Positions 3,128 through 52,773 of a stretch of DNA of 64,000 nucleotides are shown here, in pieces. Under the pieces are notes generated by a model. That model had not been told where the DNA came from. It did not search any database and saw only the letters and a program-made list of their open reading frames with translations. Positions within the stretch are counted from its first letter, which is position 1; every line of letters starts with the position of its first letter. The translations under genes and the position numbers were made by a program. The DNA comes from Escherichia phage vB_EcoM_PTE-Eco09, in sequence record PQ306574.1; one strand, written 5' to 3'.

Positions 3128-4897
3128 TTATACCGGAGAAATCCCAAAGAGGAACTCTTTAATTTGTACTGGCTGTGCTACTGCTTCGGCAGATACACCC
3201 TTAATACGGATGTTAATCTGATCGCCCTTTTCAATATTTAGGAAAGCACTGGTAGAATAGCTGATCAATTCGTCTGTGCCGTAATGACCATTTTTCGCTT
3301 CATGTACCATCTGTCCATTTTTGAAAATCGCAACAATGAATGTTGCATTATGTTGAGCTTGTACAGCACAACGGAATACACAACGGAATAAACCTTTGTC
3401 CTGAACGGTAATAACAGATTCACTTTTCACCATTTGACGCGCATTAACTTCTTCCGCCATGTCGTTAAGCGGAATCTGTTTATAAACATCCTGTTCGTCC
3501 AGTTCAACCGTAATATCTGCGGTATTTTTAAATGCTCCAGCAGCATATGCAACTTGCACCCATTCTCCGCGCTTACGCAGATAATGGAAACCGTCATCAG
3601 GTACATCATCTACTTTGTTTCCGTTAGATGTTTGTAGCTCTTTGACGATTTTAATCACGCCTTTCTGAGTAAATGGATCTTCTGAACCATCATCGCCATA
3701 GATATCACTTGATAGTTTAATAACGCCAGCGGTCAAACCTGATTCGCGATCACCTACAATCTGTTCCATGTCCTGTACGCTTGCTTCTAACCGACCCTGA
3801 GTGTTTTCTACAACTTTAATACGTCCGGCTAGAGTATGTCGATCGCTGTCAGTGCCAATCTCATTGGAAAGTCGAACAACTTCACCGCGCAAACCGTCAG
3901 CACCGCTTACACCAACAACCTGTTTAAGATCTAAAAATTCTCGCTCTGTGTTGGTTAATCGATAATCAATGCTTCCGGCCGATTGAGGCGTTCCGATCTT
4001 ATTCTCGACAGCCAGAAGACGAGGACGAATACCGGAATCTACACCATTAACATCATTGTTTAGACGTTCATAATTAGTTCCCAGCGTAGTGACTTTAGTC
4101 CCGATATCAGGGATTGAATCAAACAAAATTGCTTTCTTGACTTCTAGAACTTCGTTTGATAAGTTAGCAATGTTTCTTGCGTTGGTGCGGAGACGAACAT
4201 ACACATTTTCTTGTGTTGCAAGAGACGTGTCGCCGATCTCACTGCGCATTTTGTTAACTTGTTTTGTTAACTCGCCTACGTCAGAATCTTGCCAGTCGTT
4301 TTCAAGCTGAATGATTCGGCGACCGTGGTCATTTAATGCTGCGGTATTCTGAATAACTCGGTATTTGATGCCAGAACCGGAACTGCCAGCATCAGGGGAA
4401 CCATTGATATTAAAGTTAGGATAAGAACCCATTTCTTGTTTGATGAAAGAAATGTCATCATAGATTGTTCTTGTGCTAGGATCGGCAGCGGGGCGATCAC
4501 CAATCTTGATGTTAAGTTCTGATACAGCGTCTACCGTTGTTTGTAGAGTTCTTGCTGTTTCTCCTAAGTTATCTTCGACGGATTCAACTTTTGCGACAGT
4601 CTGGTTAACCACATCAATGATACTTCCGTCAGAAATTACCCCTAAAGTTGTTTTAATATCGTTAACCGCCGTTACAACCTCGTTAACTTTAGCGACGGTT
4701 GATTTTGCGTTTTCGTTTACGCGTGCAACGTTTTCTTGAATTGCAACCGGGGCGCGGTTAAGCGTCCCGTCATTGCCAGTCTGTGTCGTTGCTGCGCTTA
4801 AACATTCGCCATTCTTGATCCAGTTAATACGGTGCTGTCCTTCGCTTGGTACACCGTCAACATGTGGGATCTCGTGGATGTTTAATTGTTCAATCAT
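3128..4897 (-). CDS. wac: Fibritin (whisker antigen control) with extra C-terminal domain
   Basis: N-terminus (HVDGVPSEGQHRINWIKNGE) matches T4 fibritin (LPFVDGPPAEGQSRISWIKNGE); long coiled-coil region; foldon-like GFHYLRKRGEWVQV followed by about 130 extra residues. Confidence 0.8.
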   Translation of the reverse strand: MIEQLNIHEIPHVDGVPSEGQHRINWIKNGECLSAATTQTGNDGTLNRAPVAIQENVARVNENAKSTVAKVNEVVTAVNDIKTTLGVISDGSIIDVVNQTVAKVESVEDNLGETARTLQTTVDAVSELNIKIGDRPAADPSTRTIYDDISFIKQEMGSYPNFNINGSPDAGSSGSGIKYRVIQNTAALNDHGRRIIQLENDWQDSDVGELTKQVNKMRSEIGDTSLATQENVYVRLRTNARNIANLSNEVLEVKKAILFDSIPDIGTKVTTLGTNYERLNNDVNGVDSGIRPRLLAVENKIGTPQSAGSIDYRLTNTEREFLDLKQVVGVSGADGLRGEVVRLSNEIGTDSDRHTLAGRIKVVENTQGRLEASVQDMEQIVGDRESGLTAGVIKLSSDIYGDDGSEDPFTQKGVIKIVKELQTSNGNKVDDVPDDGFHYLRKRGEWVQVAYAAGAFKNTADITVELDEQDVYKQIPLNDMAEEVNARQMVKSESVITVQDKGLFRCVFRCAVQAQHNATFIVAIFKNGQMVHEAKNGHYGTDELISYSTSAFLNIEKGDQINIRIKGVSAEAVAQPVQIKEFLFGISPV

Positions 4898-15283: not shown

Positions 15284-17184
15284 TGAGCAATTGCCTCCAG
15301 ACTAATAGTTGTGTACTGAGGACGGAGATCGTTTTCAAACACGATCAAAGAACCGTCTTTAGTAAAGATGTTATCAGCAATCGGTTTAGCTGTCAACTCA
15401 ATATATGAACCAGTAAAGCGATCGCTATTGATATTCAGTTTACCCAGATCCCATGAAATAAGGTCGTCATAATGCTGAACCTCTCCAACCTCAAAGTATA
15501 GGTCCGCCCCGTCAATAACCTCTTTATCAAAATCAGTGCCGGAATAGTGCGGTAAAGCGATTGTAGAATCAACAGGGAAAGGTCCAACCAGCAATTTAGC
15601 TAAACCGGATTCTTTGTTCATTTCTGTACTTACATAATGGATTGGATATTGCTTGTCGTCCTTTTCGAAGTTGAATGAACTAGACTTGATTCCGCTCTTA
15701 TACTGGTTTAAAAACTTGATTCCAGCCATCGGTGCTTTATAGAAGTTGTCGATCTCTCGCACCATCTCGATTTCTGCACTAGAACCTATCACTGATACAT
15801 CAGCTTTGTCAATACGCGCAAGCATTTTAGACTTACTAAAGGTCTGGTTAAAAATTTCCACTTCGTCGGTATAATATGCATCAATCTGATCAATAACCGC
15901 ACCGCGCAACCACTGCTCTGATTCTGACAAGTCGTTGATTGAATAGGAAACTTTAATATTCTGTTTAATATACAGATAGTTAGGGTCAATGATGCTCGGC
16001 GTGATAGGGGCAAGGTTATATTTTGCCAGATAATCCCGCATATCTTCTTTTTGAACGGTTGTCAAGCGCAAGCCAGATTTAGGCTTAACAGCAACAAAAG
16101 CATAACCCGGTTTTTCTCGGTCGGTGAAACATTGTACCGCCTGAACAATACTACCAAAACGGCTAGACACAAAAGCCTCATAGTCGGAAGCAGTCACACA
16201 ACGACGCTGAGATTCACGCATTACCGGAGCAAGTTCACGGATACGTTCGATTGATTCAGGATCACCACCACCATCTGCACCGACATAATCACGATCATTT
16301 GTCGGATTCTCAATAATTTTAACAATAGAGATAGATGCCAATGTATCCGCGTATGTGAAATTGACAGATCCGTTAGCTTCCGCGCCTTTAGTGCTGATAT
16401 ATTCGATAACAATATTAGCACCAGTTGACGGCTTAAGTCCACCAATATAATTTGCTTCCAGTGCACCGCCAGCAGCAGATAAAGTTGATTCACCTTCACC
16501 AAAGAAGATTTCTGTATGACCGTCTACGGTTTCACGCATATAGAAAATATTACTAGCGCCAGTTGCATTAACAATGCTTTCTCGCGTCCAGTCTTTCCAT
16601 TCAGCACCGTCTACCCACAATTTAACCTGAGCGCGGTCAATATCAGGATCGCGGATCAGAATTTGTTTCTTCGGATCAAATAACATTTCTGTACGAACAA
16701 TACGACCTTGTGCGACTTTAAGCATAGGCGTATATAAACCATTTGAACCTAAAACACTCACAACGTCTTCTGTAGTCACAAACGGATAAGACGTCTGGCG
16801 ATCCACACTTGCAATAAATTTAGTTCCTCGTGGGATTCGAATACTTGCCGGATTTCGCGGATGTGTTACGTGCAACATAATTGTAGTCGATGCACTAGTT
16901 TTACTTGCTGGCAAATATCCTAAATCTTGCGCGGCTTGAACAACTGAACTACGCTTAATTGCCGTTCTGATAAAAGATTCATATAGCGCGGCGTTAGCGA
17001 ATTGCTGAATATAAAGGGTATTATATGCGAGCAAGTCCATCAATACGTTAATACCAGCACCATTAAAATCAAAATCTTTAAATTCTTCCTGGTTTCTCAT
17101 CCAGTCTGTTAATGCGCTTTTAATTTCATCAAACGTAGCAGCATTAAAAATATCAGGAATTTGTGTAATCTTTTGCTTTGTCAT
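15280..17184 (-). CDS. 6: Baseplate wedge protein (T4 gp6-like)
   Basis: 634 aa (T4 gp6 660 aa); synteny. Confidence 0.85.
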
Positions 17185-20469: not shown

Positions 20470-21165
20470 ATGGACTATCAAAAACAATATGAACGATTAA
20501 TTGAACGCGCAAAGCATAGAACGCTTGAAGGATATAAAGAAAAACATCATATTATTCCTCGTTGTATGGGAGGCGATGATAGTCCAGAAAATATAGTTGA
20601 GTTAACGGGGTCTGAACATTTTGTTGCTCATCAACTTTTAGCAAAAATGCATCCAACACATCACGGAATTGTACATGCGGCGAAAATATTGATGGGGTCT
20701 ACCAACTATAACAATAAACAATTTGAGTGGGTAAGAAAACTTGCGGTTGAGACTTCAAGAAAATTTCATACAGGAAGAAAAAGATCCGAAGAGACTAGAC
20801 GCAGAATATCAGAAGCAACTAAAGGAAAGAGAAAAGGAATTAAATTATCTGAGGAACATCGACAGAAATTATCTGCTTCATTAAAAGGTAGAGTGTTTAC
20901 AGAAGAACATAAAAGAAATATTGCGTCAAGAGAAATTACACAAGAATGGAGAGACAACATCTCTAAAGCGGGTAAGGGTAGAAAGTTGTCACAAGAAAAC
21001 GTAGAGAAATGGAAACGTATTCATAACACGCCAGAAATGAAACAAAAATATAGTGAATTGTCAAAGTCTCGTCCGTATTTCACCTGTCCTCATTGTGGAA
21101 AAACAGCCAATCAGGGAAATTATGTTAGATGGCATGGTGACAACTGCAAGAAGAAGGTGGTATAA
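20470..21165 (+). CDS. HNH homing endonuclease with NUMOD3-like repeats
   Basis: HHIIPRCMGG..N..EL..EH HNH motif, then repeated basic S/T-E-E-x-R-x-K motifs (GRKRSEETRRRISEATKG, KLSEEHRQKLSASLKG); inserted upstream of gp4. Confidence 0.8.
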   Translation: MDYQKQYERLIERAKHRTLEGYKEKHHIIPRCMGGDDSPENIVELTGSEHFVAHQLLAKMHPTHHGIVHAAKILMGSTNYNNKQFEWVRKLAVETSRKFHTGRKRSEETRRRISEATKGKRKGIKLSEEHRQKLSASLKGRVFTEEHKRNIASREITQEWRDNISKAGKGRKLSQENVEKWKRIHNTPEMKQKYSELSKSRPYFTCPHCGKTANQGNYVRWHGDNCKKKVV

Positions 21166-21638
21166 TGGGTAATTGCAACACATATAGGGGTAAATATAGA
21201 CCTGAAAACCCGGAGAAGTATAAAGGCGACCTGAAAAAAATCGTCTACAGGTCAAGTTGGGAATTACATATAATGAAATTTTTAGACCGCAATCCTAGAG
21301 TTGCAAAATGGGGATCTGAGACCGTAGTAATTCCTTATGAGTCATCAACAGACGGAAAAAGACACAGATACTTTATGGATTTTTACGTTAAGTTTGATGA
21401 TGGCAAGGAGCATTTATGGGAAGTTAAACCAGCTAAAGAGACAAGGCCACCGGAAAAGCCAAAAAGAATGACCGCAAAGACAAAGCAACGATATATGCAT
21501 GAAGTGTGGACGTACACAAAAAATACTGAAAAATGGTTAGCTGCCGTGAAATTATGCCAAAAGCATAACATGGAGTTTAAGATCATCACCGAACATGCAT
21601 TAAAGAAAGTGTTTGGCTTTAAAGGGCTTAACAAATAG
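21165..21638 (+). CDS. 4: Head completion protein (gp4-like), PD-(D/E)xK-like motif
   Basis: 157 aa (T4 gp4 about 150 aa); D..E.K motif (MDFYVKF..EHLWEVKP); position before gp2. Confidence 0.55.
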   Translation: MGNCNTYRGKYRPENPEKYKGDLKKIVYRSSWELHIMKFLDRNPRVAKWGSETVVIPYESSTDGKRHRYFMDFYVKFDDGKEHLWEVKPAKETRPPEKPKRMTAKTKQRYMHEVWTYTKNTEKWLAAVKLCQKHNMEFKIITEHALKKVFGFKGLNK

Positions 21639-22527: not shown

Positions 22528-23670
22528 ATGACTAAAGAAAGAAAACCTAATTCAGTTCCTAGACCGTTCGGTGTATATCTAGAGAAGGTAAAAGAACATA
22601 TCCCATGTGGTTATGAATGGTATGGTCTAGTCGGAGAATACACCAACGCAAAGGATACTAGATTTAAGTTAAAATGTGATAAAGGACATACGTCAACTAT
22701 ATTTAGTTTAGATACTCTTAGACTGGGTGTAAAATGTCATGAATGCACTGGTCGCTTACGCTGGACCAAAGAAAGAATAGATGATGCATTAAAGACAATA
22801 TGCGGAAAATACACATTGATCGATATTCCTAAAGGATATACAGGTCAAATGACAGAATTACTAATGCATTGTCCTGATTGCAACAAAAACTTTACTAAGA
22901 AATTTATATATCTTTATCAAGGTCATGGTTGTCTCTGCGTTAAGGGTAAACGCTGGAATAGCGAAGAGTTGCTAACAGAGATGAGGAATAACCAAAAAGA
23001 CCACGAAGTCATTGGCTATGTGTCTGATTATAAAGATTTTTATGAAAGAAATATCTTAGTTAAATGCCCTAATGGACATGAATATACTGCATCCGGTCAC
23101 TCGTTTTTAGTTAATGGATCTAGATGTAAACTATGTTCAGGTAAAAACAAGAAGTCAACTGAGCAAGTAGTAAAGGAAATAACAGATAAGGCGATTGATA
23201 AAGGTGATACATTTGTTGATTTTGTTGGCGGTGAGTATAGAGGAATGCTAAAAACAAAATTGGTAATGCGTTGTAGTAGCGGACATGAATTTACGCCAAA
23301 CTTAGGAGACTACGTATCAAAAAATAGCGGTTGCCCTATGTGTAGCAATCATGGATTTAAGAGGAATAAACCTGCATACATTTATGTACAAACTTTATAC
23401 AAAGAAGATGTTGCGGTTGCTATAAAATTTGGTATAACCAACAACAGATTAATAAAAAGAATACAAAACCAATCTTCAAAATCTATATTTCGTCATGAGT
23501 TGACATTTTATAAAAAATACGATAACGGTGATGATGCTCTTTCTATGGAATGTGCAATAAAGAAAAAGTATAAAGGTTTCTATGTTAGTAAAGAAGATAT
23601 GCCCGATGGATATACAGAAACGCTATCCATATCAGAGCTACAAAACGTCATTGATATGATCAATAGTTAA
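22528..23670 (+). CDS. Zinc-ribbon repeat protein with C-terminal GIY-YIG-like (T5orf172-type) domain
   Basis: Four CxxGHE[FY]..G..CxxC repeats; C-terminal KPAYIYVQ..IKFGIT..R..E resembles a GIY-YIG/T5orf172 fold; splits the gp2-gp3 pair. Confidence 0.5.
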   Translation: MTKERKPNSVPRPFGVYLEKVKEHIPCGYEWYGLVGEYTNAKDTRFKLKCDKGHTSTIFSLDTLRLGVKCHECTGRLRWTKERIDDALKTICGKYTLIDIPKGYTGQMTELLMHCPDCNKNFTKKFIYLYQGHGCLCVKGKRWNSEELLTEMRNNQKDHEVIGYVSDYKDFYERNILVKCPNGHEYTASGHSFLVNGSRCKLCSGKNKKSTEQVVKEITDKAIDKGDTFVDFVGGEYRGMLKTKLVMRCSSGHEFTPNLGDYVSKNSGCPMCSNHGFKRNKPAYIYVQTLYKEDVAVAIKFGITNNRLIKRIQNQSSKSIFRHELTFYKKYDNGDDALSMECAIKKKYKGFYVSKEDMPDGYTETLSISELQNVIDMINS

Positions 23671-25440: not shown

Positions 25441-25701
25441 ATGTCCAATCAGCATGAACAAATGATTAATGTCCTGAAAGTACGTCTGTTTGACACTCAA
25501 GAAAAGGCCGCATTCTTAGAAGGCCAACTGAAAGATCGTGAGCGTGTATTGATGGAACTGGTACGCATTCTGGGTATTCAGCCAGACGAAAACGGGACTG
25601 TTTCCCTTGATGCTATTGTCGAAGAAGTGAAAGCACTTCTCCCTAAAGACGAAGCAGCGGAAGACGCAGAAGAGGAAGTAGAACTGATCACGGAGGCTTG
25701 A
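25441..25701 (+). CDS. 57A: Tail fiber assembly chaperone (gp57A-like)
   Basis: 86 aa, coiled-coil with acidic C-terminus; the track start is GTG, moved to ATG 25441 with TAGGAGA RBS; position after gp1. Confidence 0.5.
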   Translation: MSNQHEQMINVLKVRLFDTQEKAAFLEGQLKDRERVLMELVRILGIQPDENGTVSLDAIVEEVKALLPKDEAAEDAEEEVELITEA

Positions 25702-25703
25702 TT

Positions 25704-26168
25704 ATGACCCCGTTTAGAGAATCCGTTAAAGGTACATATGCGGCGGTTAAATTCACTGAGGATACACTAGACCGCATTGAAAAATTGCAGGAGTTCTACG
25801 ATCTGCCTAATGCCGTTCCTCGTGATAAACTGCATAGCACTATCTTATATTCTCGTGTCTATGTTCCGTTTATACCAGAAGAAGGTGAAAAGTTTTTAGG
25901 CTCTCTATGCCATCTGAAAGTGTTTGAAACTCAATCCGGTACTAATGCGCTTGTGTTGGCATTTGAAAGCGACTACATGCAATTCAGACACGATATAGGC
26001 ACTGCTTTAGGCGCGACGTGGGATTATCCTGAATATGTACCGCATATCACGCTTTCTTATGATGTTGGTGCGCGTAAATTTGGCACTGACCTAGAGTTCG
26101 ATTTAGAGATTGTCCGATCTCATGAGTATGTCGAAGATCTAGACCTGGAGTGGACGACCAAACTGTAA
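25704..26168 (+). CDS. 57B: 2H phosphoesterase-like protein (57B-like)
   Basis: Two H-x-T/S-x motifs (LHSTILYS and PHITLSY) typical of the 2H/LigT family; position after 57A. Confidence 0.55.
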   Translation: MTPFRESVKGTYAAVKFTEDTLDRIEKLQEFYDLPNAVPRDKLHSTILYSRVYVPFIPEEGEKFLGSLCHLKVFETQSGTNALVLAFESDYMQFRHDIGTALGATWDYPEYVPHITLSYDVGARKFGTDLEFDLEIVRSHEYVEDLDLEWTTKL

Positions 26169-30987: not shown

Positions 30988-31176
30988 ATGGCGTTTTGTC
31001 TATGGTTGCTTATAGTATGCTTTGTAATGGGTTTATGCTTCTATACTGGCGTATTCTGTTTTGTCGCCTGGATAGACGGCGGTTTCTCTAATATCATTTT
31101 GCTTGCCGGATCAATTGCCTCGTTTCTGTTGATATGGCTTTTTTCTTATTTGTTTGGTGAATGGGATTTATTATGA
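30988..31176 (+). CDS. Small membrane protein (62 aa)
   Basis: TGGAGGG RBS; hydrophobic. Confidence 0.5.
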   Translation: MAFCLWLLIVCFVMGLCFYTGVFCFVAWIDGGFSNIILLAGSIASFLLIWLFSYLFGEWDLL

Positions 31177-31352
31177 ACAAATATATGTTTTGGGCGACCC
31201 TTGCCTATGTTGTGATTGCGGTAGTATGGGGATTCTGTGTTATTGTCGCTTCTCTGATCTGGTGGGAATCACTTGGCGCGGGTTGTCTTATTAGCGGCGC
31301 ATCATGTCTTATCACTGGCGTGATTGTTGGTTTTCTTGTGTCGGAGGATTGA
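31173..31352 (+). CDS. Small membrane protein (59 aa)
   Basis: ATGA overlap with the upstream ORF; hydrophobic. Confidence 0.45.
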   Translation: MNKYMFWATLAYVVIAVVWGFCVIVASLIWWESLGAGCLISGASCLITGVIVGFLVSED

Positions 31353-31354
31353 CA

Positions 31355-31570
31355 ATGGTTTTCTTCGGTCTTATTATAATGGTGCTTAATGTCATTTGTG
31401 GCGTTGCTATGTTAGCTATGGCCTTTACTGTTCCTATGTCTGTTGACAGCGCCGCGTCAGTAGGTGTGTTGGGAATTGTAAACCTGTTTACTGCCATAGC
31501 ATGTTGGATCACCGGACGCGATGAGGTAATGTATTACTTTTATAAACGTAAACAGAGAAAAGGAAAATAA
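31355..31570 (+). CDS. Small membrane protein (71 aa)
   Basis: ATG with GGAGGA RBS; hydrophobic. Confidence 0.5.
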   Translation: MVFFGLIIMVLNVICGVAMLAMAFTVPMSVDSAASVGVLGIVNLFTAIACWITGRDEVMYYFYKRKQRKGK

Positions 31571-31571
31571 T

Positions 31572-31763
31572 ATGAAATTTGCATTTGGTTTTACCGTGAT
31601 GTTGATTATTGCTCTGAGTATGTGTACCGGAATGCTTGTCTTTGGCTTAACAAACGGATTTAGCATTTATAATAATCCGTGGGTTGATTGTGGAATGGTT
31701 GTCGTTAATGCTATCCTTATTGGTGCTAATACAAGAACTCTATGCAGGATCGCCGGAATCTAA
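31572..31763 (+). CDS. Small membrane protein (63 aa)
   Basis: ATG; hydrophobic; directly upstream of the endolysin. Confidence 0.5.
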   Translation: MKFAFGFTVMLIIALSMCTGMLVFGLTNGFSIYNNPWVDCGMVVVNAILIGANTRTLCRIAGI

Positions 31764-31791: not shown

Positions 31792-32181
31792 ATGTTTAAA
31801 TTATCTCAAAGAAGCAAAGATCGGCTTGTTGGTGTACATCCAGACCTGGTAAAAGTCGTTCATCGTGCGTTAGAACTGACTCCGGTCGATTTTGGTATTA
31901 CGGAAGGTGTGCGTAGTCTAGAAACGCAAAAGAAATATGTTGCGGAAGGTAAATCTAAGACTATGAAATCTCGTCATCTTCACGGTTTCGCGGTTGATGT
32001 TGTAGCGTATCCGAAAGATAAAGATACATGGAACATGAAATATTACCGCATGATCGCTGATGCGTTTAAACAAGCTGGTCGAGAATTGGGTGTTCCTGTT
32101 ATCTGCGGTGTTGATTGGGTTACTTTTAAAGACGGACCGCATATGGAACTCGATAAAAAGGTATATCCAGACCCGGTATAA
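31792..32181 (+). CDS. Endolysin, L-alanyl-D-glutamate peptidase (M15 family, T5 Lys-like)
   Basis: RALELTPVDFGITEGVRS, SRHLHGFAVD, AFKQAGRELGV, GPHMELD resemble T5 endolysin as recalled; H-x6-D and H zinc ligands. Confidence 0.8.
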   Translation: MFKLSQRSKDRLVGVHPDLVKVVHRALELTPVDFGITEGVRSLETQKKYVAEGKSKTMKSRHLHGFAVDVVAYPKDKDTWNMKYYRMIADAFKQAGRELGVPVICGVDWVTFKDGPHMELDKKVYPDPV

Positions 32182-32226: not shown

Positions 32227-32802
32227 ATGGCTTTTAAATATTGGGATGAATCCCTACAAAACGAGATAAAACTTAGATATGCTCATATAGAGGGTATCTT
32301 ATATTATAGAGTCGATAGTAAAGCTATCAAAGGACGACCATTAGGGAGTAGATATAAACACGGCGATTTAGTTAAAGTCAGAACAAATAAAGATGGTCAT
32401 CTTAGATTTTGGCATAGTAGAGATGACGGTCTTCCTAGAGTTCATCTATTCGTGCATAGGGTTGTTTGGTTTCTAGAACATGGGACGCAAGTTAGATTAA
32501 TTGATCATATTGACGGTAATCCTGCGAATAACAATCCTCCAAATCTTAGGGAGGCAACCGACGCGCAAAATCAACATAATAGAAAGAAGAAGTCTAAAAA
32601 GTTTTCTAGTGTGTATAAGGGTGTTAGTAAGTGTAACAGGAAGGATTTGCGTAAGAAATGGAGAGCTAGTATAATGGTCAACCTACAAAGACATGTTCTT
32701 GGACAATATGACACAGAAATCGAAGCTGCAATCGCTTATGATAATGCAGCTAGGAAATTTTATGGAGAATATGCTCTATTGAATTTCCCAGATCCAAAAT
32801 GA
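32227..32802 (+). CDS. HNH homing endonuclease with AP2 DNA-binding domain
   Basis: HIDGNPANNNPPNLREATDAQNQHN HNH motif plus AP2-like YKGVS..WRASI..YDTEIEAAIAYDNAARKFYGE. Confidence 0.75.
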   Translation: MAFKYWDESLQNEIKLRYAHIEGILYYRVDSKAIKGRPLGSRYKHGDLVKVRTNKDGHLRFWHSRDDGLPRVHLFVHRVVWFLEHGTQVRLIDHIDGNPANNNPPNLREATDAQNQHNRKKKSKKFSSVYKGVSKCNRKDLRKKWRASIMVNLQRHVLGQYDTEIEAAIAYDNAARKFYGEYALLNFPDPK

Positions 32803-32864
32803 AATATTAACCATCAACGGGGAGACAATCTAAGGATCTCTCCCCGTTCACTGGAGACTTGACA

Positions 32865-33350
32865 ATGAATATTGATGTAAAATTAGAAAGTAAAGATTTG
32901 ATTTATGCTGCGTGTGTTTCTGCCGTAGATGGCATCATAGAACGCCGTAAGCGACGCAATTTTGCTGATGACCTAGATTCCATTGTCTCAATCAATTTAG
33001 GCCGTCAGACAGGGCATACAGACGCTACAATCAAGTTATATGACCATTATACGAGAAAAGGCTATAGTGTCTTTATCGTTTCAACGACGCGGGAACATGC
33101 CAAAACGATCCGAGATCGCGGTCGCGGTGAAAATGTAAATATTTCAAATGTAGATTGTACGTCGATCCGAACTTTCCTGAATCCGATCACATGGCGAGGT
33201 CGTAGTCTTGACAAAACAATTTTTATCCTAGATACTACCATGCGCGGATTTACTGACAGCGTATTGCAGTTTTTAGAATTGAATCGACTTAGTGTTGGGA
33301 TGGGTAATGTAGAAGACCAACCTATTTTCATTGGCTTAGGTATCAACTAA
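32865..33350 (+). CDS. Hypothetical protein (161 aa)
   Basis: ATG with CTGGAGA RBS (the track start is TTG). Confidence 0.5.
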   Translation: MNIDVKLESKDLIYAACVSAVDGIIERRKRRNFADDLDSIVSINLGRQTGHTDATIKLYDHYTRKGYSVFIVSTTREHAKTIRDRGRGENVNISNVDCTSIRTFLNPITWRGRSLDKTIFILDTTMRGFTDSVLQFLELNRLSVGMGNVEDQPIFIGLGIN

Positions 33351-33475
33351 TGAAAAATAAAGATAGCGTAGCTCGTCGATTTCGTGCTACAATTAAAAAG
33401 AATCGTAAAGTCCAACCTGATAAACTCTATGGTGTTTTGGTTGGTAAAATTAATGACGAACGTCCTGATCTATAA
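33350..33475 (+). CDS. Possible small basic protein (41 aa)
   Basis: ATG overlapping the upstream stop; MKNKDSVARRFRATIKKNRK..; speculative. Confidence 0.25.
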   Translation: MKNKDSVARRFRATIKKNRKVQPDKLYGVLVGKINDERPDL

Positions 33476-33485
33476 GAGGTGATTT

Positions 33486-33902
33486 ATGGAATTTAAAGCA
33501 ATTCAAATCATGAAAGGTGAGCATAAAGGTACTATTATCGGTGGACATTTCGCGCCTATGATTCTGGTATCCGAACCGAAAGCCCTGATCGGCGCTAAAG
33601 TAATTGTTAGTAAAACTTTCGCAGAAGACCATGTGATCACCGCAGAAGACGTCGATTCGCTGGCACTGCACACAACTAGCTTCCGTCCGGTGATTGTAGA
33701 TAATGGTGCTCCGGTTGTCGAAGGTGGTCAGCATTTGAATGTTAACGTATTGTTACGAGAAATGTTGCTGGACGCTGTTGAACATCCTGAGAAGTACCCG
33801 CAGCTTACAATTCGCGTTTCTGGTTACGCAGTGCGCTTCAATAGTCTGACTCCAGACCAGCAGCGTGACGTTATCGCTCGTACCTTTACCGAATCTCTCT
33901 AA
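33486..33902 (+). CDS. grcA: Autonomous glycyl radical cofactor (GrcA/YfiD-like)
   Basis: C-terminal [49 protein letters not shown] is near-identical to E. coli GrcA as recalled. Confidence 0.85.
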
Positions 33903-33912
33903 TTTTTCATCA

Positions 33913-33946
33913 AGCCAATCCGAAAAGGGTTGGCTTTTTCTTTTTA
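33913..33946 (+). terminator. Rho-independent terminator
   Basis: AGCCAATCCGAAAAGGGTTGGCT hairpin followed by TTTTTCTTTTT. Confidence 0.65.
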
Positions 33947-33988
33947 TGATGTTATGATGTAATCTCTTAATCAATTGAGGGTTTAATT

Positions 33989-34687
33989 ATGCATACAATG
34001 GTTAAAATGGTCTTCGGATCTCACTTATACGGCCTTGATACTGAAAACTCCGATAAAGATTATCGTGGTATCTTTGTTCCGACTGCGAAAGAAATTATCT
34101 TAGGATCGATGAAAGAACACTATGATCAAAGCACTAGCGGTCAAGGGATCAAGAACACCAAAGACGACATTGACGTTAATATGTTCAGTCTAAAACGGTT
34201 TATCAATCTGGCATGTAAAGGCGATATCGGCGCTATTGACATGGTGCACGCTCCTAGTAACATGTTGATTGAATCCTCCAGAGAATGGGAATACATCCGA
34301 ACACATCGCGATAAATTCTATCATGTTGGGATGTGTGGTTTGTCTGGTTATCTCAAAAAGCAGGTAGCAAAATCTGAAAAGTATTTCAGTAACTGGAAAG
34401 ATCTTTCTCATGCTCTGCGTGTTGGTTATCAGCTACTTGAAATCTATCAGACAGGTGATTTACAATTCCCGCTCGCGCGACGTTCTTCTATTTTAGCGTG
34501 TAAGTTAGGAGAAAGAACCTTTGATAATGTGCGGGAAGAATTGAAAGATCTCTACGAGCGTGTTAAACTCGCTCGTGAAGAGGCAAAGAAAAACGGTATG
34601 CCGGAAGAACCAGATGTTGACTTTTGGAAAGATCTATTAGAATATATTCATCTGACAGTTGTTCTGGAACACTATACCCGTGGTTAG
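33989..34687 (+). CDS. Pol-beta-superfamily nucleotidyltransferase-like protein
   Basis: N-terminal GSHLYGLDTENSDKDYRGIF matches the GS-x(9-11)-DxD nucleotidyltransferase signature; helical C-terminal half. Confidence 0.55.
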   Translation: MHTMVKMVFGSHLYGLDTENSDKDYRGIFVPTAKEIILGSMKEHYDQSTSGQGIKNTKDDIDVNMFSLKRFINLACKGDIGAIDMVHAPSNMLIESSREWEYIRTHRDKFYHVGMCGLSGYLKKQVAKSEKYFSNWKDLSHALRVGYQLLEIYQTGDLQFPLARRSSILACKLGERTFDNVREELKDLYERVKLAREEAKKNGMPEEPDVDFWKDLLEYIHLTVVLEHYTRG

Positions 34688-34708
34688 TTAATATAGGAGA
34701 TTAAGAAA

Positions 34709-34903
34709 ATGAAAGTTTATACCAATAGTAATAAAGGACAAGATATTACGCCCGGAAAGATGTATGATTTTACCCCGACACGAGACGACGAAAATCCACC
34801 GACAATCGGTTACATCAAAGATGATATAGGTTATCGTATTACGATCCTTCTTGATGGTGGATGTTCTCATCTTCGCGGTGATCGTTGGGAGTTAGTACCA
34901 TGA
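34709..34903 (+). CDS. Small paralog family member A (64 aa)
   Basis: TAGGAGA RBS; motif IGYIKDDIGYRITILLDGGCSHLRGDRWEL shared with the next two ORFs. Confidence 0.5.
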   Translation: MKVYTNSNKGQDITPGKMYDFTPTRDDENPPTIGYIKDDIGYRITILLDGGCSHLRGDRWELVP

Positions 34904-35145
34904 TGTATGTGATGACACCTTATAGTAACCGCAGGTATATTACACCAAATACACTGTATGAATATACACCACATGAAAGATTTGCGAATAGTGGTTATAT
35001 CCGTGATGATAAGGGACACCAGATTTTTATTTGTCTTAAAAATTGTGCACACTTAGACGGTCGAACATGGACACTAATCGAAGAACCAAAACAACCTGAG
35101 AATAAAGGTCTTTGGAACGCAATTAAAAAAATCTTGAAAAAGTAG
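34900..35145 (+). CDS. Small paralog family member B (81 aa)
   Basis: ATGA overlap; GYIRDDKGHQIFICLKNCAHLDGRTWTL. Confidence 0.5.
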   Translation: MMYVMTPYSNRRYITPNTLYEYTPHERFANSGYIRDDKGHQIFICLKNCAHLDGRTWTLIEEPKQPENKGLWNAIKKILKK

Positions 35146-35173
35146 TTGACACAACAAAACGGGGGTAGTAATA
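35146..35173 (+). promoter_or_regulatory. Early promoter module with stem-loop over the -10 box
   Basis: TTGACA-N16-TAATAT; inverted repeat GGGGGTA/TACCCCC (35161-35180). Confidence 0.55.
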
Positions 35174-35202
35174 TACCCCCATCGAAACAAAGGAGTATTA
35201 AA

Positions 35203-35538
35203 ATGAGTATTAAAGAAGTGTTTGTTTATACCGACTATGACGGGTGCGCCTATCTCACTGCTGGAAAACTTTACCGTTGTGAGATTATTCATGGTACGCT
35301 AGGTCGAATTATGTGCGATCCTATTACAAAATTGTGGAAAAATAATCCTAGTGAGCGAGAAACTCTTATTAACCTAGATCCAGACGGTTGTTCACATTTG
35401 GACTATAGAAAATGGCATATCGTGACACATGATGCTTATGGTATTCATCTTGCTACTAAAGAATTAACTATAGAGAAATTCAAGTTTAAAGAAATCCCGT
35501 TTGTATACTGGCTTCGCAATTTGTTTAAGAAAGGATAA
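35203..35538 (+). CDS. Small paralog family member C (111 aa)
   Basis: ATG after the promoter and AAGGAG RBS; DPDGCSHLDYRKWHIV motif. Confidence 0.5.
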   Translation: MSIKEVFVYTDYDGCAYLTAGKLYRCEIIHGTLGRIMCDPITKLWKNNPSERETLINLDPDGCSHLDYRKWHIVTHDAYGIHLATKELTIEKFKFKEIPFVYWLRNLFKKG

Positions 35539-35542
35539 TAAA

Positions 35543-35965
35543 ATGGAAACAATTAACGTACATGTTCGCCGTAGTAAGCTGCGTAGATTCTTCGAAACCG
35601 AAATGCGCAAAACCAATGCGCAGATCAAAGAAAAGTGCTTGAATGATGGTTATGGTGAGTATATTTTCATTCGCTTTAGTCCGCATATGATCGACCGTCT
35701 AACCGATCGTCATATCGATGAACATAAGACAATGGAACTATTCAATAAGATAGAAACTCGTTTGCCGGAGATCTTCGACTTCCTGAAAATGGAAGACCGA
35801 CCTAATCGATTAGAAATTACTGACGGTAACATGTGGATCGGGATGACAGTAGACCTAATTGAAGACGGTAAGCCATATCACGGTCTATGCTGCCGAATGA
35901 TTATAGAGAATCCAAAACGACTGGCGGGTAAAATGTCGGCTGTTGTTTTGAAAGTTGACCAATAA
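35543..35965 (+). CDS. Hypothetical protein (140 aa)
   Basis: ATG with AGAAAGGA RBS. Confidence 0.5.
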   Translation: METINVHVRRSKLRRFFETEMRKTNAQIKEKCLNDGYGEYIFIRFSPHMIDRLTDRHIDEHKTMELFNKIETRLPEIFDFLKMEDRPNRLEITDGNMWIGMTVDLIEDGKPYHGLCCRMIIENPKRLAGKMSAVVLKVDQ

Positions 35966-50910: not shown

Positions 50911-52773
50911 ATGGAAAAACTAATCAAAGACATTACAGAGATCGCAACGGGTAAAGAAAACGAAGTAAGCAAAGAGAACGCGAACAAAGACGCGCGAACA
51001 TTCCCGACACGTCGAGATCTGATTGCTGGCGCTGTGTCTAAACAGATTGCTAAAACCGTGTTACCTGAGCACATCTATAAAGCGCATGTAGACGGTGATA
51101 TTCATTATCATGATATGGATTATGCACCAGCTATGCCGTTTACTAACTGCTGTCTTGTTAATCTCAAAGACATGTTAGAGAATGGTTTTAAATTGGGTAG
51201 CGCACAAATCGAAAGTCCGAAATCAATCGGCGTTGCTTGTGCTGTAACCGCTCAAATTATCGCACAGGTGGCAAGTCATCAATATGGCGGGACCACAATT
51301 GCAAACATCGATCAGGTTTTAGCGCCATACGTTGAGAAAACATATCATAAACACCTTGCTGATGCCGAAACCTACGGAATCAAAGCTGATACTCTCTATG
51401 CACAAGAGAAGACAGAAAAAGAAACTTTAGACGGGTATCAAGCGTTGGAATATGAAATCAACACTTTGTTCTCCACCAACGGTCAAACGCCTTTTGTGAC
51501 TTTAACCTTTGGTATGGGTACTAGCTGGGAAGAAAAACTGATTCAGAAAGCGATCCTGAACGTTCGAACTAAAGGTTTAGGTAAAGATGGTATCACTCCG
51601 GTGTTTCCTAAGCTGGTGATGTTCTTAGAAGAAGGATTAAACCTTAAACCGGAAGATCCGAACTACGACATTAAGCAACTTGCATTGGAATGTTCGAGTA
51701 AGCGTCTTTACCCTGATTATATCTCTGCGAAGAATAACCGTAGCATCACTGGATCTAGTGTTCCGGTTAGCCCGATGGGTTGTCGTAGCTTCCTGGGTGT
51801 GTGGCATAATGAGAAAGGCGAAGAAGTATTAGACGGACGTAATAACTTAGGTGTTGTGACTCTGAATCTTCCGCGTATTGCCCTTATTGCCGCGCGTCGT
51901 GCTGGTAAAGCGTCTGTAATGCGCAGAATTGAGCTATTCGAACAAGAGCTAGCTAATCGTATGCCTATTTGTTTTGATGCGCTCATGAGTCGCGTAGACG
52001 CTTTAAAAGGCGCTAAAGCCAATGTTGCTCCTGTACTATATACCGAAGGTGCATTTTTCCGTATTCATCAAAACGATGAAATTTTGGAAGTGTTGAAAGA
52101 TGGTCGCGCTAGTATCTCTCTTGGATATATTGGTTTACATGAGGTATTGAGCGTCCTGTTTGATGTTCATCCGTTTGATTCGGAAGATGCGCAGCGATAC
52201 GGTAAACATATTCTTAAGATCTTGCGTCATTATACTGAAAAATGGAAGGACGAAACCGGACTTGGGTTTAGTCTTTACGGTACTCCAGCCGAGAGCCTTT
52301 GCTATCGATTTAATCGACTGGACCGAGAGCAATTTGGTATTGTTAAGGGTGCTACCGATAAAGACTGGTACACCAACTCATTCCACCTTGACGTAGACCG
52401 GAAAGTCACTCCATTTGAGAAAATTGACTTTGAGAAAGATTATCACTGGCTGGCGTCCGGTGGCATGATCTCTTATGTTGAGTTCCCAGACATGAAAAAC
52501 AACCTGAAAGGTCTTGAAACTGTAGTAGACTATGCAATGGATAAATTGCACTACTTCGGTGTTAATACTCCTTCTGATGTATGTCATGTATGCGGATCTA
52601 CTAAGGAAATGAGAGCGACCGAGTCTGGTTTTGTTTGTCCTGATTGCGGTAATGACAATCTGGAAAAGATGAATGTTATCCGTCGCGTTAGTGGATATCT
52701 TGGATCTGTTGATCTGCGTCCATTCAACCACGGGAAACACTCCGAGATGGTAAACCGCGTTAAGCACATGTAA
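50911..52773 (+). CDS. nrdD: Anaerobic ribonucleoside-triphosphate reductase
   Basis: 620 aa; long stretches resemble T4 NrdD (NANKDARTFPTRRDL, PFTNCCLVNLKDMLENGFKLGSAQIE, C-terminal glycyl-radical RRVSGYLG); no intron. Confidence 0.9.
   Translation: MEKLIKDITEIATGKENEVSKENANKDARTFPTRRDLIAGAVSKQIAKTVLPEHIYKAHVDGDIHYHDMDYAPAMPFTNCCLVNLKDMLENGFKLGSAQIESPKSIGVACAVTAQIIAQVASHQYGGTTIANIDQVLAPYVEKTYHKHLADAETYGIKADTLYAQEKTEKETLDGYQALEYEINTLFSTNGQTPFVTLTFGMGTSWEEKLIQKAILNVRTKGLGKDGITPVFPKLVMFLEEGLNLKPEDPNYDIKQLALECSSKRLYPDYISAKNNRSITGSSVPVSPMGCRSFLGVWHNEKGEEVLDGRNNLGVVTLNLPRIALIAARRAGKASVMRRIELFEQELANRMPICFDALMSRVDALKGAKANVAPVLYTEGAFFRIHQNDEILEVLKDGRASISLGYIGLHEVLSVLFDVHPFDSEDAQRYGKHILKILRHYTEKWKDETGLGFSLYGTPAESLCYRFNRLDREQFGIVKGATDKDWYTNSFHLDVDRKVTPFEKIDFEKDYHWLASGGMISYVEFPDMKNNLKGLETVVDYAMDKLHYFGVNTPSDVCHVCGSTKEMRATESGFVCPDCGNDNLEKMNVIRRVSGYLGSVDLRPFNHGKHSEMVNRVKHM

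Follow-up and report, generated by a model that had tools for sequence, protein, structure and literature searches.

Two conserved open reading frames (ORFs) of T4-type phages, vs.6 and nrdC.11, were listed in 2006 as carrying a Gly_radical and a nucleotidyltransferase (NTase) domain, respectively (PMC1524935). The T4 Vs.6 protein, also called Y06I, is described in a passage of PMC8683613 that cites work from Knappe's group (Wagner 2001) as acting like YfiD: it takes a glycyl radical from the activase of pyruvate formate-lyase (PFL) and restores PFL that has been cleaved by oxygen. GrcA/YfiD of Escherichia coli is likewise a small stand-alone protein with an RVSGY C-terminal module. Here we describe the two genes in Escherichia phage vB_EcoM_PTE-Eco09 (record PQ306574.1), in a stretch of 64,000 nucleotides that is referred to as the window. 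On the plus strand, a GrcA/YfiD-type vs.6 ortholog (33486..33902; 138 amino acids, aa), whose product is a predicted glycyl-radical "spare part", is followed by an nrdC.11 ortholog (33989..34687; 232 aa), whose product is a short form of a predicted Pol-beta NTase of the RlaP family (PF10127). Both genes are already known and catalogued, and the finding, though correct, is an ordinary one; new detail is confined to a naturally minimal NrdC.11 without the ~105-residue domain that almost all T4-type orthologs carry.

An activity for the RlaP family was reported in a December 2025 preprint (PMC12776372). Two Pseudomonas enzymes, PfRlaP and PaRlaP, extend the 3'-OH ends of RNA by one or two nucleoside monophosphates (NMPs) but do not modify DNA or protein. 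Their preferred acceptor is the end at the break in a cleaved-tRNA mimic and their preferred metal is Mn2+; for a tRNA that has lost a nucleotide, repair with these enzymes brings back part of the aminoacylation. The same work places T4 NrdC.11 in cluster 5 of the PF10127 sequence similarity network (SSN), points out that RNA ligase 1 (Rnl1) needs a 3'-OH end such as RlaP leaves, and proposes that RlaP serves as an antidote to "smart" ribotoxins; one of these, RloC, excises the wobble nucleotide. The RloC lesion has been described as expected to impede phage tRNA repair (PMC3458546, PMC2610378), and a comparative survey of jumbo-phage genomes also predicted this repair role for phage RlaPs encoded next to RNA ligases (PMC7824862). 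The original prediction for this locus, made from the DNA letters and their translations, regarded the substrate of the NTase as unknown, a statement that the Pseudomonas enzymes render out of date for the family.

Megablast aligns positions 32800..35600 of the window from end to end with the genomes of RB49, Phi1, GEC-3S, FL37, and other members of Krischvirus at 97–99% nucleotide identity, and on this identity the window is assigned to a Krischvirus, an RB49-like T4-type phage. The gene order of the region is the same in RB49, Phi1, GEC-3S, and other Krischvirus genomes, and in RB49 the two genes are flanked by endolysin, vs.8, and regB. Both ORFs appear in the six-frame ORF list at exactly the coordinates of the original prediction, and a Shine-Dalgarno sequence is present 5' of each, GAGGTGA in the case of vs.6. 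The earlier reading did not recognize the pair as named T4-type genes; the RefSeq record of RB49 already names them vs.6 ("Vs.6 conserved hypothetical protein") and nrdC.11 ("nucleotidyltransferase").

The product of the first ORF matches the Pfam Gly_radical domain over residues 78–119 (E = 1.5e-16), and a phmmer search of PDB sequences returns E. coli GrcA (6owr; E = 5.8e-33) and residues 698–759 of PflB (E = 5.5e-27), in agreement with its original assignment as a GrcA-type autonomous glycyl-radical protein. The near-identity to GrcA that was claimed with this assignment holds for the C-terminal module, in which residues 77–138 align with GrcA residues 66–127 with 57 of 62 positions identical and 5 different (92%); it does not hold for the N-terminal 76 residues, which show weak similarity to GrcA. 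Against PflB 698–759, the same module differs at 11 of 62 positions (82% identity), and the alignment places G113 of the glycyl-radical motif (R110-V-S-G113-Y114; codons at 33813..33827, plus strand) opposite PflB G734. As in the GrcA family (IPR011140), Vs.6 is a small stand-alone protein with a C-terminal Gly_radical domain and close mimicry of the PflB C terminus. In some database records it is labeled "pyruvate formate-lyase".

Over its whole length, Vs.6 is 58% identical to T4 Vs.6 (E = 4e-47), which carries the RefSeq label "autonomous glycyl radical cofactor GrcA" and is encoded in the same neighborhood, vs.8–vs.6–regB. The T4 protein has 119 aa and GrcA has 127 aa; the N-terminal half of the longer Krischvirus protein is diverged and contains an insertion of ~12 residues relative to T4. 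A point against the GrcA assignment is the score on the NCBIfam GrcA equivalog model TIGR04365, which at 133.8 bits lies under the cutoff of 170 because the N-terminal half has diverged. Despite this shortfall, orthology to the characterized T4 Vs.6 still supports the predicted function. The ratio of nonsynonymous to synonymous substitution rates (dN/dS) of vs.6 against a 73%-identical relative on the metagenomic contig L004 is 0.06, indicative of strong purifying selection.

With the T4 protein as a guide, the host activase PflA would install the radical on G113 of Vs.6, and the radical-bearing protein would dock onto host PFL whose own radical domain had been cut off by oxygen. Docking would restore production of acetyl-CoA and formate and could keep fermentative energy metabolism running in micro-oxic or anaerobic infection. 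We infer this rescue for the Krischvirus protein from orthology, the activity having been demonstrated for the T4 ortholog. In E. coli DNA, vs.6 is matched best by the 3' end of pflB, to which the 3' part of the gene (33718..33902) is 76.8% identical over 185 nt, though the protein is nearer to GrcA. The G+C content around vs.6 is 0.46–0.48, versus ~0.38 in the flanks. The likeness to pflB DNA and the raised G+C together suggest that vs.6 may be an old capture from the host.

The second ORF is identified by its family matches as NrdC.11, a predicted RlaP-family NTase. It scores 52.7 bits on Pfam PF10127 against a gathering cutoff of 23, with residues 7–191 aligned contiguously to profile positions 24–198 of this family, to which the bacterial RlaPs PfRlaP and PaRlaP also belong. 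It also matches phrog_388, "nucleotidyltransferase" (E = 5.6e-79), and is 31% identical to T4 NrdC.11 (BLASTP, E = 8e-50); a search of NCBIfam returned no model matching the NTase. Homologs are found in 1622 phage records by tblastn, and a family-profile search returned 1645 clusters at 50% identity with E < 1e-30. Each of the 120 best homolog clusters listed carries a precomputed PF10127 assignment. In GenBank and UniRef, the homologs are widely mislabeled "thioredoxin", "glutaredoxin nrdC", and even "HNH homing endonuclease", apparently by way of the gene name.

The product of nrdC.11 starts with MHTMVKMVFGSHLYGLDTENSDKDYRG, which contains the GS-x10-DxD signature of the original prediction as G10-S11-x10-D22-x-D24 (34016..34060, plus strand), comprising the NTase helix-turn motif and the first two presumed metal-binding carboxylates. 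Conservation was read from two alignments of diverse homologs, of 20 and 38 sequences, and the motif is invariant in both. A presumed third catalytic carboxylate is contributed by D60-I-D62 (codons at 34166..34174, plus strand) at the start of a strand formed by residues 62–67 in the AlphaFold2 model. Twelve residues are invariant in 38 of 38 homologs (G10, S11, D22, D24, N56, D60, D62, D84, W136, K137, H141, and R144), and the basic residues K26, K58, R107, K124, and K128 are nearly so; the bacterial RlaPs likewise have three conserved acidic residues. Loss of the signature in homologs, or a lack of profile support, had been named in advance as what would speak against an NTase; the signature is invariant, and both PF10127 and phrog_388 match.

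The AlphaFold2 model of NrdC.11 is of high confidence (predicted local distance difference test score, pLDDT, 91.5; predicted template modeling score, pTM, 0.88). It folds into an alpha/beta NTase domain of strands and helices (residues 1–96) followed by helices spanning residues 116–230, consistent with the helical C-terminal half that had been anticipated from the sequence. By its published description, the crystal structure of PfRlaP has the same N-terminal NTase and C-terminal helical domains. The top Foldseek neighbor of the short-form model, and also of a long-form model, is HalB of the Hailong system, with moderate fold resemblance. The next matches are the NTase-like structure 3c18, kanamycin and other aminoglycoside/lincosamide nucleotidyltransferases, and, for the C-terminal domain, HEPN-like bundles.

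NrdC.11 has 335 residues in T4 and 232 in the window, and the two are separated by a single gap of 104–106 residues between window residues ~128 and ~136 (BLASTP; columns 135–250 of the 20-sequence alignment). This junction (residues ~128–136, KSEKYFSNW; 34370..34396, plus strand) is where BLASTP, the alignment, and the long-form model all place the ~105-residue insert of T4-type orthologs. In the AlphaFold model of the long form, the insert (~131–240) appears as a separate alpha/beta unit consisting of a helix, five strands, and a long helix, and the lower pTM of that model, 0.69, points to a loosely placed domain. Two motifs in the insert, YG-KGS and YGER...A..N, are nearly invariant in the 38-homolog alignment. 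The Krischvirus protein is without this insert and its motifs; it has in common with T4 NrdC.11 the N-terminal NTase domain, the C-terminal helices, and all of the invariant residues, and is a compact version with two domains, NTase and helical. The genomic setting also differs, as the T4 gene adjoins mobD and nrdC.10 whereas the Krischvirus gene adjoins vs.6. The long-form domain (T4 NrdC.11 ~131–240; 15436..16446, minus strand, in L001) has no recognizable match among solved structures.

Short forms account for two of the 120 best clusters, namely the Krischvirus cluster with 149 member sequences and a 57%-identical metagenomic protein of 234 aa, and the 150 top representatives from the family-profile search are all of the long form. 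The metagenomic relative, L004, has the same synteny, in the order M15 endolysin, vs.8, small ORF, vs.6, HNH gene, and nrdC.11. A dN/dS of 0.17 between the two short-form nrdC.11 genes indicates that purifying selection maintains this form. The Pfam RlaP model runs unbroken from end to end on short forms and breaks at about position 143 on long forms, and distant homologs from actinophages align colinearly with the short protein (tblastn); because of this alignment and this colinearity, the short form is taken to be the canonical RlaP architecture, with the insert a presumed specialty of the T4-type clade. In a neighbor-joining tree, midpoint-rooted and with neither outgroup nor support values, the two short forms are one clade nested among long forms, which hints at a single secondary loss of the insert in this pair, although the actinophage homologs and the Pfam model, both insert-free, would also fit an insert that was never gained.

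By analogy with the bacterial enzymes, NrdC.11 would be a template-independent nucleotidyltransferase that uses G10-S11, D22-x-D24, and D60-D62, most likely with Mn2+, and that extends damaged RNA at its 3'-OH by one or two NMPs. Its likely purpose would be to replace the nucleotide removed by host RloC-type anticodon nucleases, after which Pnk (pseT) and RNA ligase 1 (rnlA) could reseal a functional tRNA; RB49 encodes both pseT (Pnk) and rnlA (Rnl1), ~75 kb from nrdC.11. RNA repair was among the roles raised in the original prediction, and we infer RNA-end repair as the best-supported mechanism for NrdC.11 because of the RlaP biochemistry, the jumbo-phage prediction, the nature of the RloC lesion, and the presence of pseT and rnlA in RB49. 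For the explanation as a whole, a GrcA-type Vs.6 beside an RlaP-type NrdC.11 that acts in RNA-end repair, with the short form as a compact enzyme, we estimate a probability of roughly 0.6.

Several observations weigh against this explanation. One preprint, on two Pseudomonas enzymes of another subfamily (SSN cluster 1a, as opposed to cluster 5), is the sole source of the RlaP biochemistry, and those enzymes are encoded in RtcB/RtcA operons, whereas nrdC.11 adjoins no RNA-ligase gene in Krischvirus or in T4, so that the gene-neighborhood argument from which RlaP takes its name fails for these phage genes. T4 can be grown in the laboratory with nrdC.11 deleted, and likewise with vs.3-denV deleted. 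Searches of PDB sequences with full-length NrdC.11, with its N-terminal domain alone, and with two profiles of the family gave no meaningful solved structure for NrdC.11 and linked it to neither PfRlaP nor HalB, and the closest fold, that of HalB, belongs to an enzyme that makes poly-dA rather than repairing RNA. Loss of a conserved insert could, moreover, have altered the substrate or the partner of the short form.

The fold of NrdC.11 invites the reading that it is a HalB-like polymerase making oligonucleotides (oligo-dA) as a decoy that keeps Hailong guard channels closed, or as another anti-defense signal. HalB (PDB 9dbh), a protein-primed poly-dA synthase, is of similar size (217 aa), and its catalytic Asp pair D21/D23, as given in PDB entry titles, is placed like D22/D24; in the account of one review, loss of poly-dA triggers Hailong defense, so a phage supply would be a logical counter. 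HalB nevertheless has no detectable sequence similarity to NrdC.11, even when profiles are searched to an E value of 10, and sits in a defense locus rather than a phage genome, no HalA-like partner was recognized among the annotated neighbors of nrdC.11, and the sequence family of NrdC.11 is RlaP, the tested members of which reject DNA acceptors. A PADLOC scan gave insignificant matches only, none of them to Hailong, and membership of NrdC.11 in a defense system was rejected on this result; with regard to CD-NTases and cGAS-like cyclases, the best PADLOC "Cyclase" matches (E = 0.015–0.028) cover the helical half only, and the Foldseek probability for cGAS is 0.15–0.2. The nucleotide-signal defense or anti-defense role, which the original prediction mentioned for enzymes of this kind, has nothing in its favor here beyond the moderate HalB resemblance, and we regard a HalB-like activity as improbable. 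The broader version, in which the whole T4-type NrdC.11 clade would be HalB-like polymerases directed against Hailong-type guards, with the short form as catalytic core and the insert as a regulatory or targeting add-on, is kept because HalB is the top structural neighbor of both forms, and is very unlikely. Modification of a small molecule or protein, as by aminoglycoside/lincosamide nucleotidyltransferases, MNT antitoxins that AMPylate HEPN toxins, or DrrA-type AMPylation, would account for fold matches to ANT(4'), LinB, AAD(9), DrrA, and GlnE as well as for the HEPN-like bundles, and a long-form homolog has a faint match to MntA (E = 0.006). That match spans only the 17-residue GS motif and is far under the cutoff, no labeling of E. 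coli proteins was seen with the RlaPs that have been assayed, and no HEPN partner gene adjoins nrdC.11, so we find this activity just as improbable. The rarity of short forms among the best clusters and representatives, and the absence of ~105 residues with both long-family motifs, could instead mark the 232-aa gene as a decaying remnant crippled by an internal deletion. Its reading frame is, however, intact in 58 phage records and in 149 member sequences, the 57%-identical relative keeps the short form at a low dN/dS, all catalytic and cleft residues are retained, and the protein is modeled with high confidence and matches the RlaP profile end to end. We consider decay highly doubtful, and a pseudogene was rejected on dN/dS, conservation, and model confidence.

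The partners proposed for Vs.6 can be weighed in the same way. The original prediction had fitted this gene to the anaerobic nrdD/nrdG genes, and Vs.6 might serve as a spare radical domain for the anaerobic ribonucleotide reductase of the phage itself: nrdD, with a Gly_radical domain, lies within the window (50911..52773), RVSGY is present in both proteins, and a role in nucleotide metabolism was suggested in 2006 (PMC1524935). Beyond this pentapeptide, however, Vs.6 and the NrdD of the window have no significant similarity (E = 1.3–1.6), whereas the C-terminal module of Vs.6 copies those of PflB and GrcA, the best E. coli DNA match is pflB, and the T4 ortholog, as recounted in PMC8683613, reconstitutes PflB. 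A direct Vs.6–NrdD link was rejected on the pentapeptide being all that the two have in common, and we hold the NrdD reading unlikely. Because of the PflB/GrcA likeness, the T4 Y06I biochemistry, and the lack of further similarity to NrdD, the predicted target of Vs.6 is host PflB and not NrdD, and the tie to nrdD/nrdG is one of shared anaerobic theme only.

Vs.6 and NrdC.11 might also form one co-expressed, cooperating module, as their genes adjoin on the same strand in Krischvirus genomes. The original prediction had placed a terminator between them, and hairpin analysis identifies a strong intrinsic terminator at 33912..33946 (plus strand), with a 10-bp stem (33912..33936; 5 G-C pairs), a 5-nt loop, and a T-run; the stem is followed by TTTCTTTTT, and an equivalent terminator is annotated at the same site in phage GEC-3S. 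Overlapping the terminator is a candidate promoter of sigma-70 type that could serve nrdC.11 (33930..33958, plus strand; TTGGCT-17-TATGAT and a TG upstream); its function is suggested by 9 of 12 consensus matches, and none of the related records examined annotates it. In T4 the two genes are ~8 kb apart, on the L004 contig an HNH (homing) endonuclease gene lies between them, and their biochemistries are unrelated. Because of the terminator and the T4 and L004 arrangements, vs.6 and nrdC.11 are two independent, non-essential accessory genes and no functional unit; a functional operon was rejected on these three grounds, and cooperation of the two products is extremely unlikely.

The neighbors of nrdC.11 in the window are vs.6, small ORFs of no assigned function, and regB, and T4-type genes elsewhere in the window encode NrdD, endonuclease VII, Dam, thymidine kinase, dNMP kinase, Acb1, a Tk.4 macro domain, and RegB; no tRNA genes were found in the 64 kb with ARAGORN. 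Directly 3' of nrdC.11 are three tandem paralogous small ORFs (34709..34903, 34885..35145, and 35146..35538, plus strand; phrog_6261 / phrog_15978) that have a C-x-H-L...W motif in common. A homing-endonuclease ORF with HNH_3 and AP2 domains (32227..32802, plus strand) lies between endolysin (31792..32181) and vs.8, a spot at which RB49 has no gene; homing endonucleases flank nrdC.11 also in T4 (mobD) and in L004 (NUMOD4/HNH at 3951..4547). Upstream of endolysin, a run of small, very hydrophobic, overlapping ORFs of 62–88 aa (30988..31763, plus strand) probably encodes small membrane proteins. Farther away, the anti-CBASS phosphodiesterase Acb1 is recognized by a strong Pfam match (25698..26168, plus strand; E = 1.5e-51), and the RB49 ortholog of this ORF is gene 57B, "RNA ligase" in RefSeq. 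A TnsA-like endonuclease N-terminal domain and a CapR-homology region with a treble-clef zinc finger are found in one ORF each (21165..21638 and 22528..23670, plus strand), near an ORF containing NUMOD3 (20470..21165).

The region can confidently be labeled vs.6, the GrcA-type PFL spare part, and nrdC.11, the RlaP-family RNA nucleotidyltransferase. The short NrdC.11 is a minimal, confidently modeled member of a T4-type RlaP clade of >1600 clusters at 50% identity, and it is a convenient choice for a first assay of a phage RlaP. Such an assay would address the question of whether T4-type phages can repair tRNAs that host anticodon nucleases have robbed of a nucleotide, and comparison of the short form with T4 NrdC.11 would reveal the contribution of the inserted domain.

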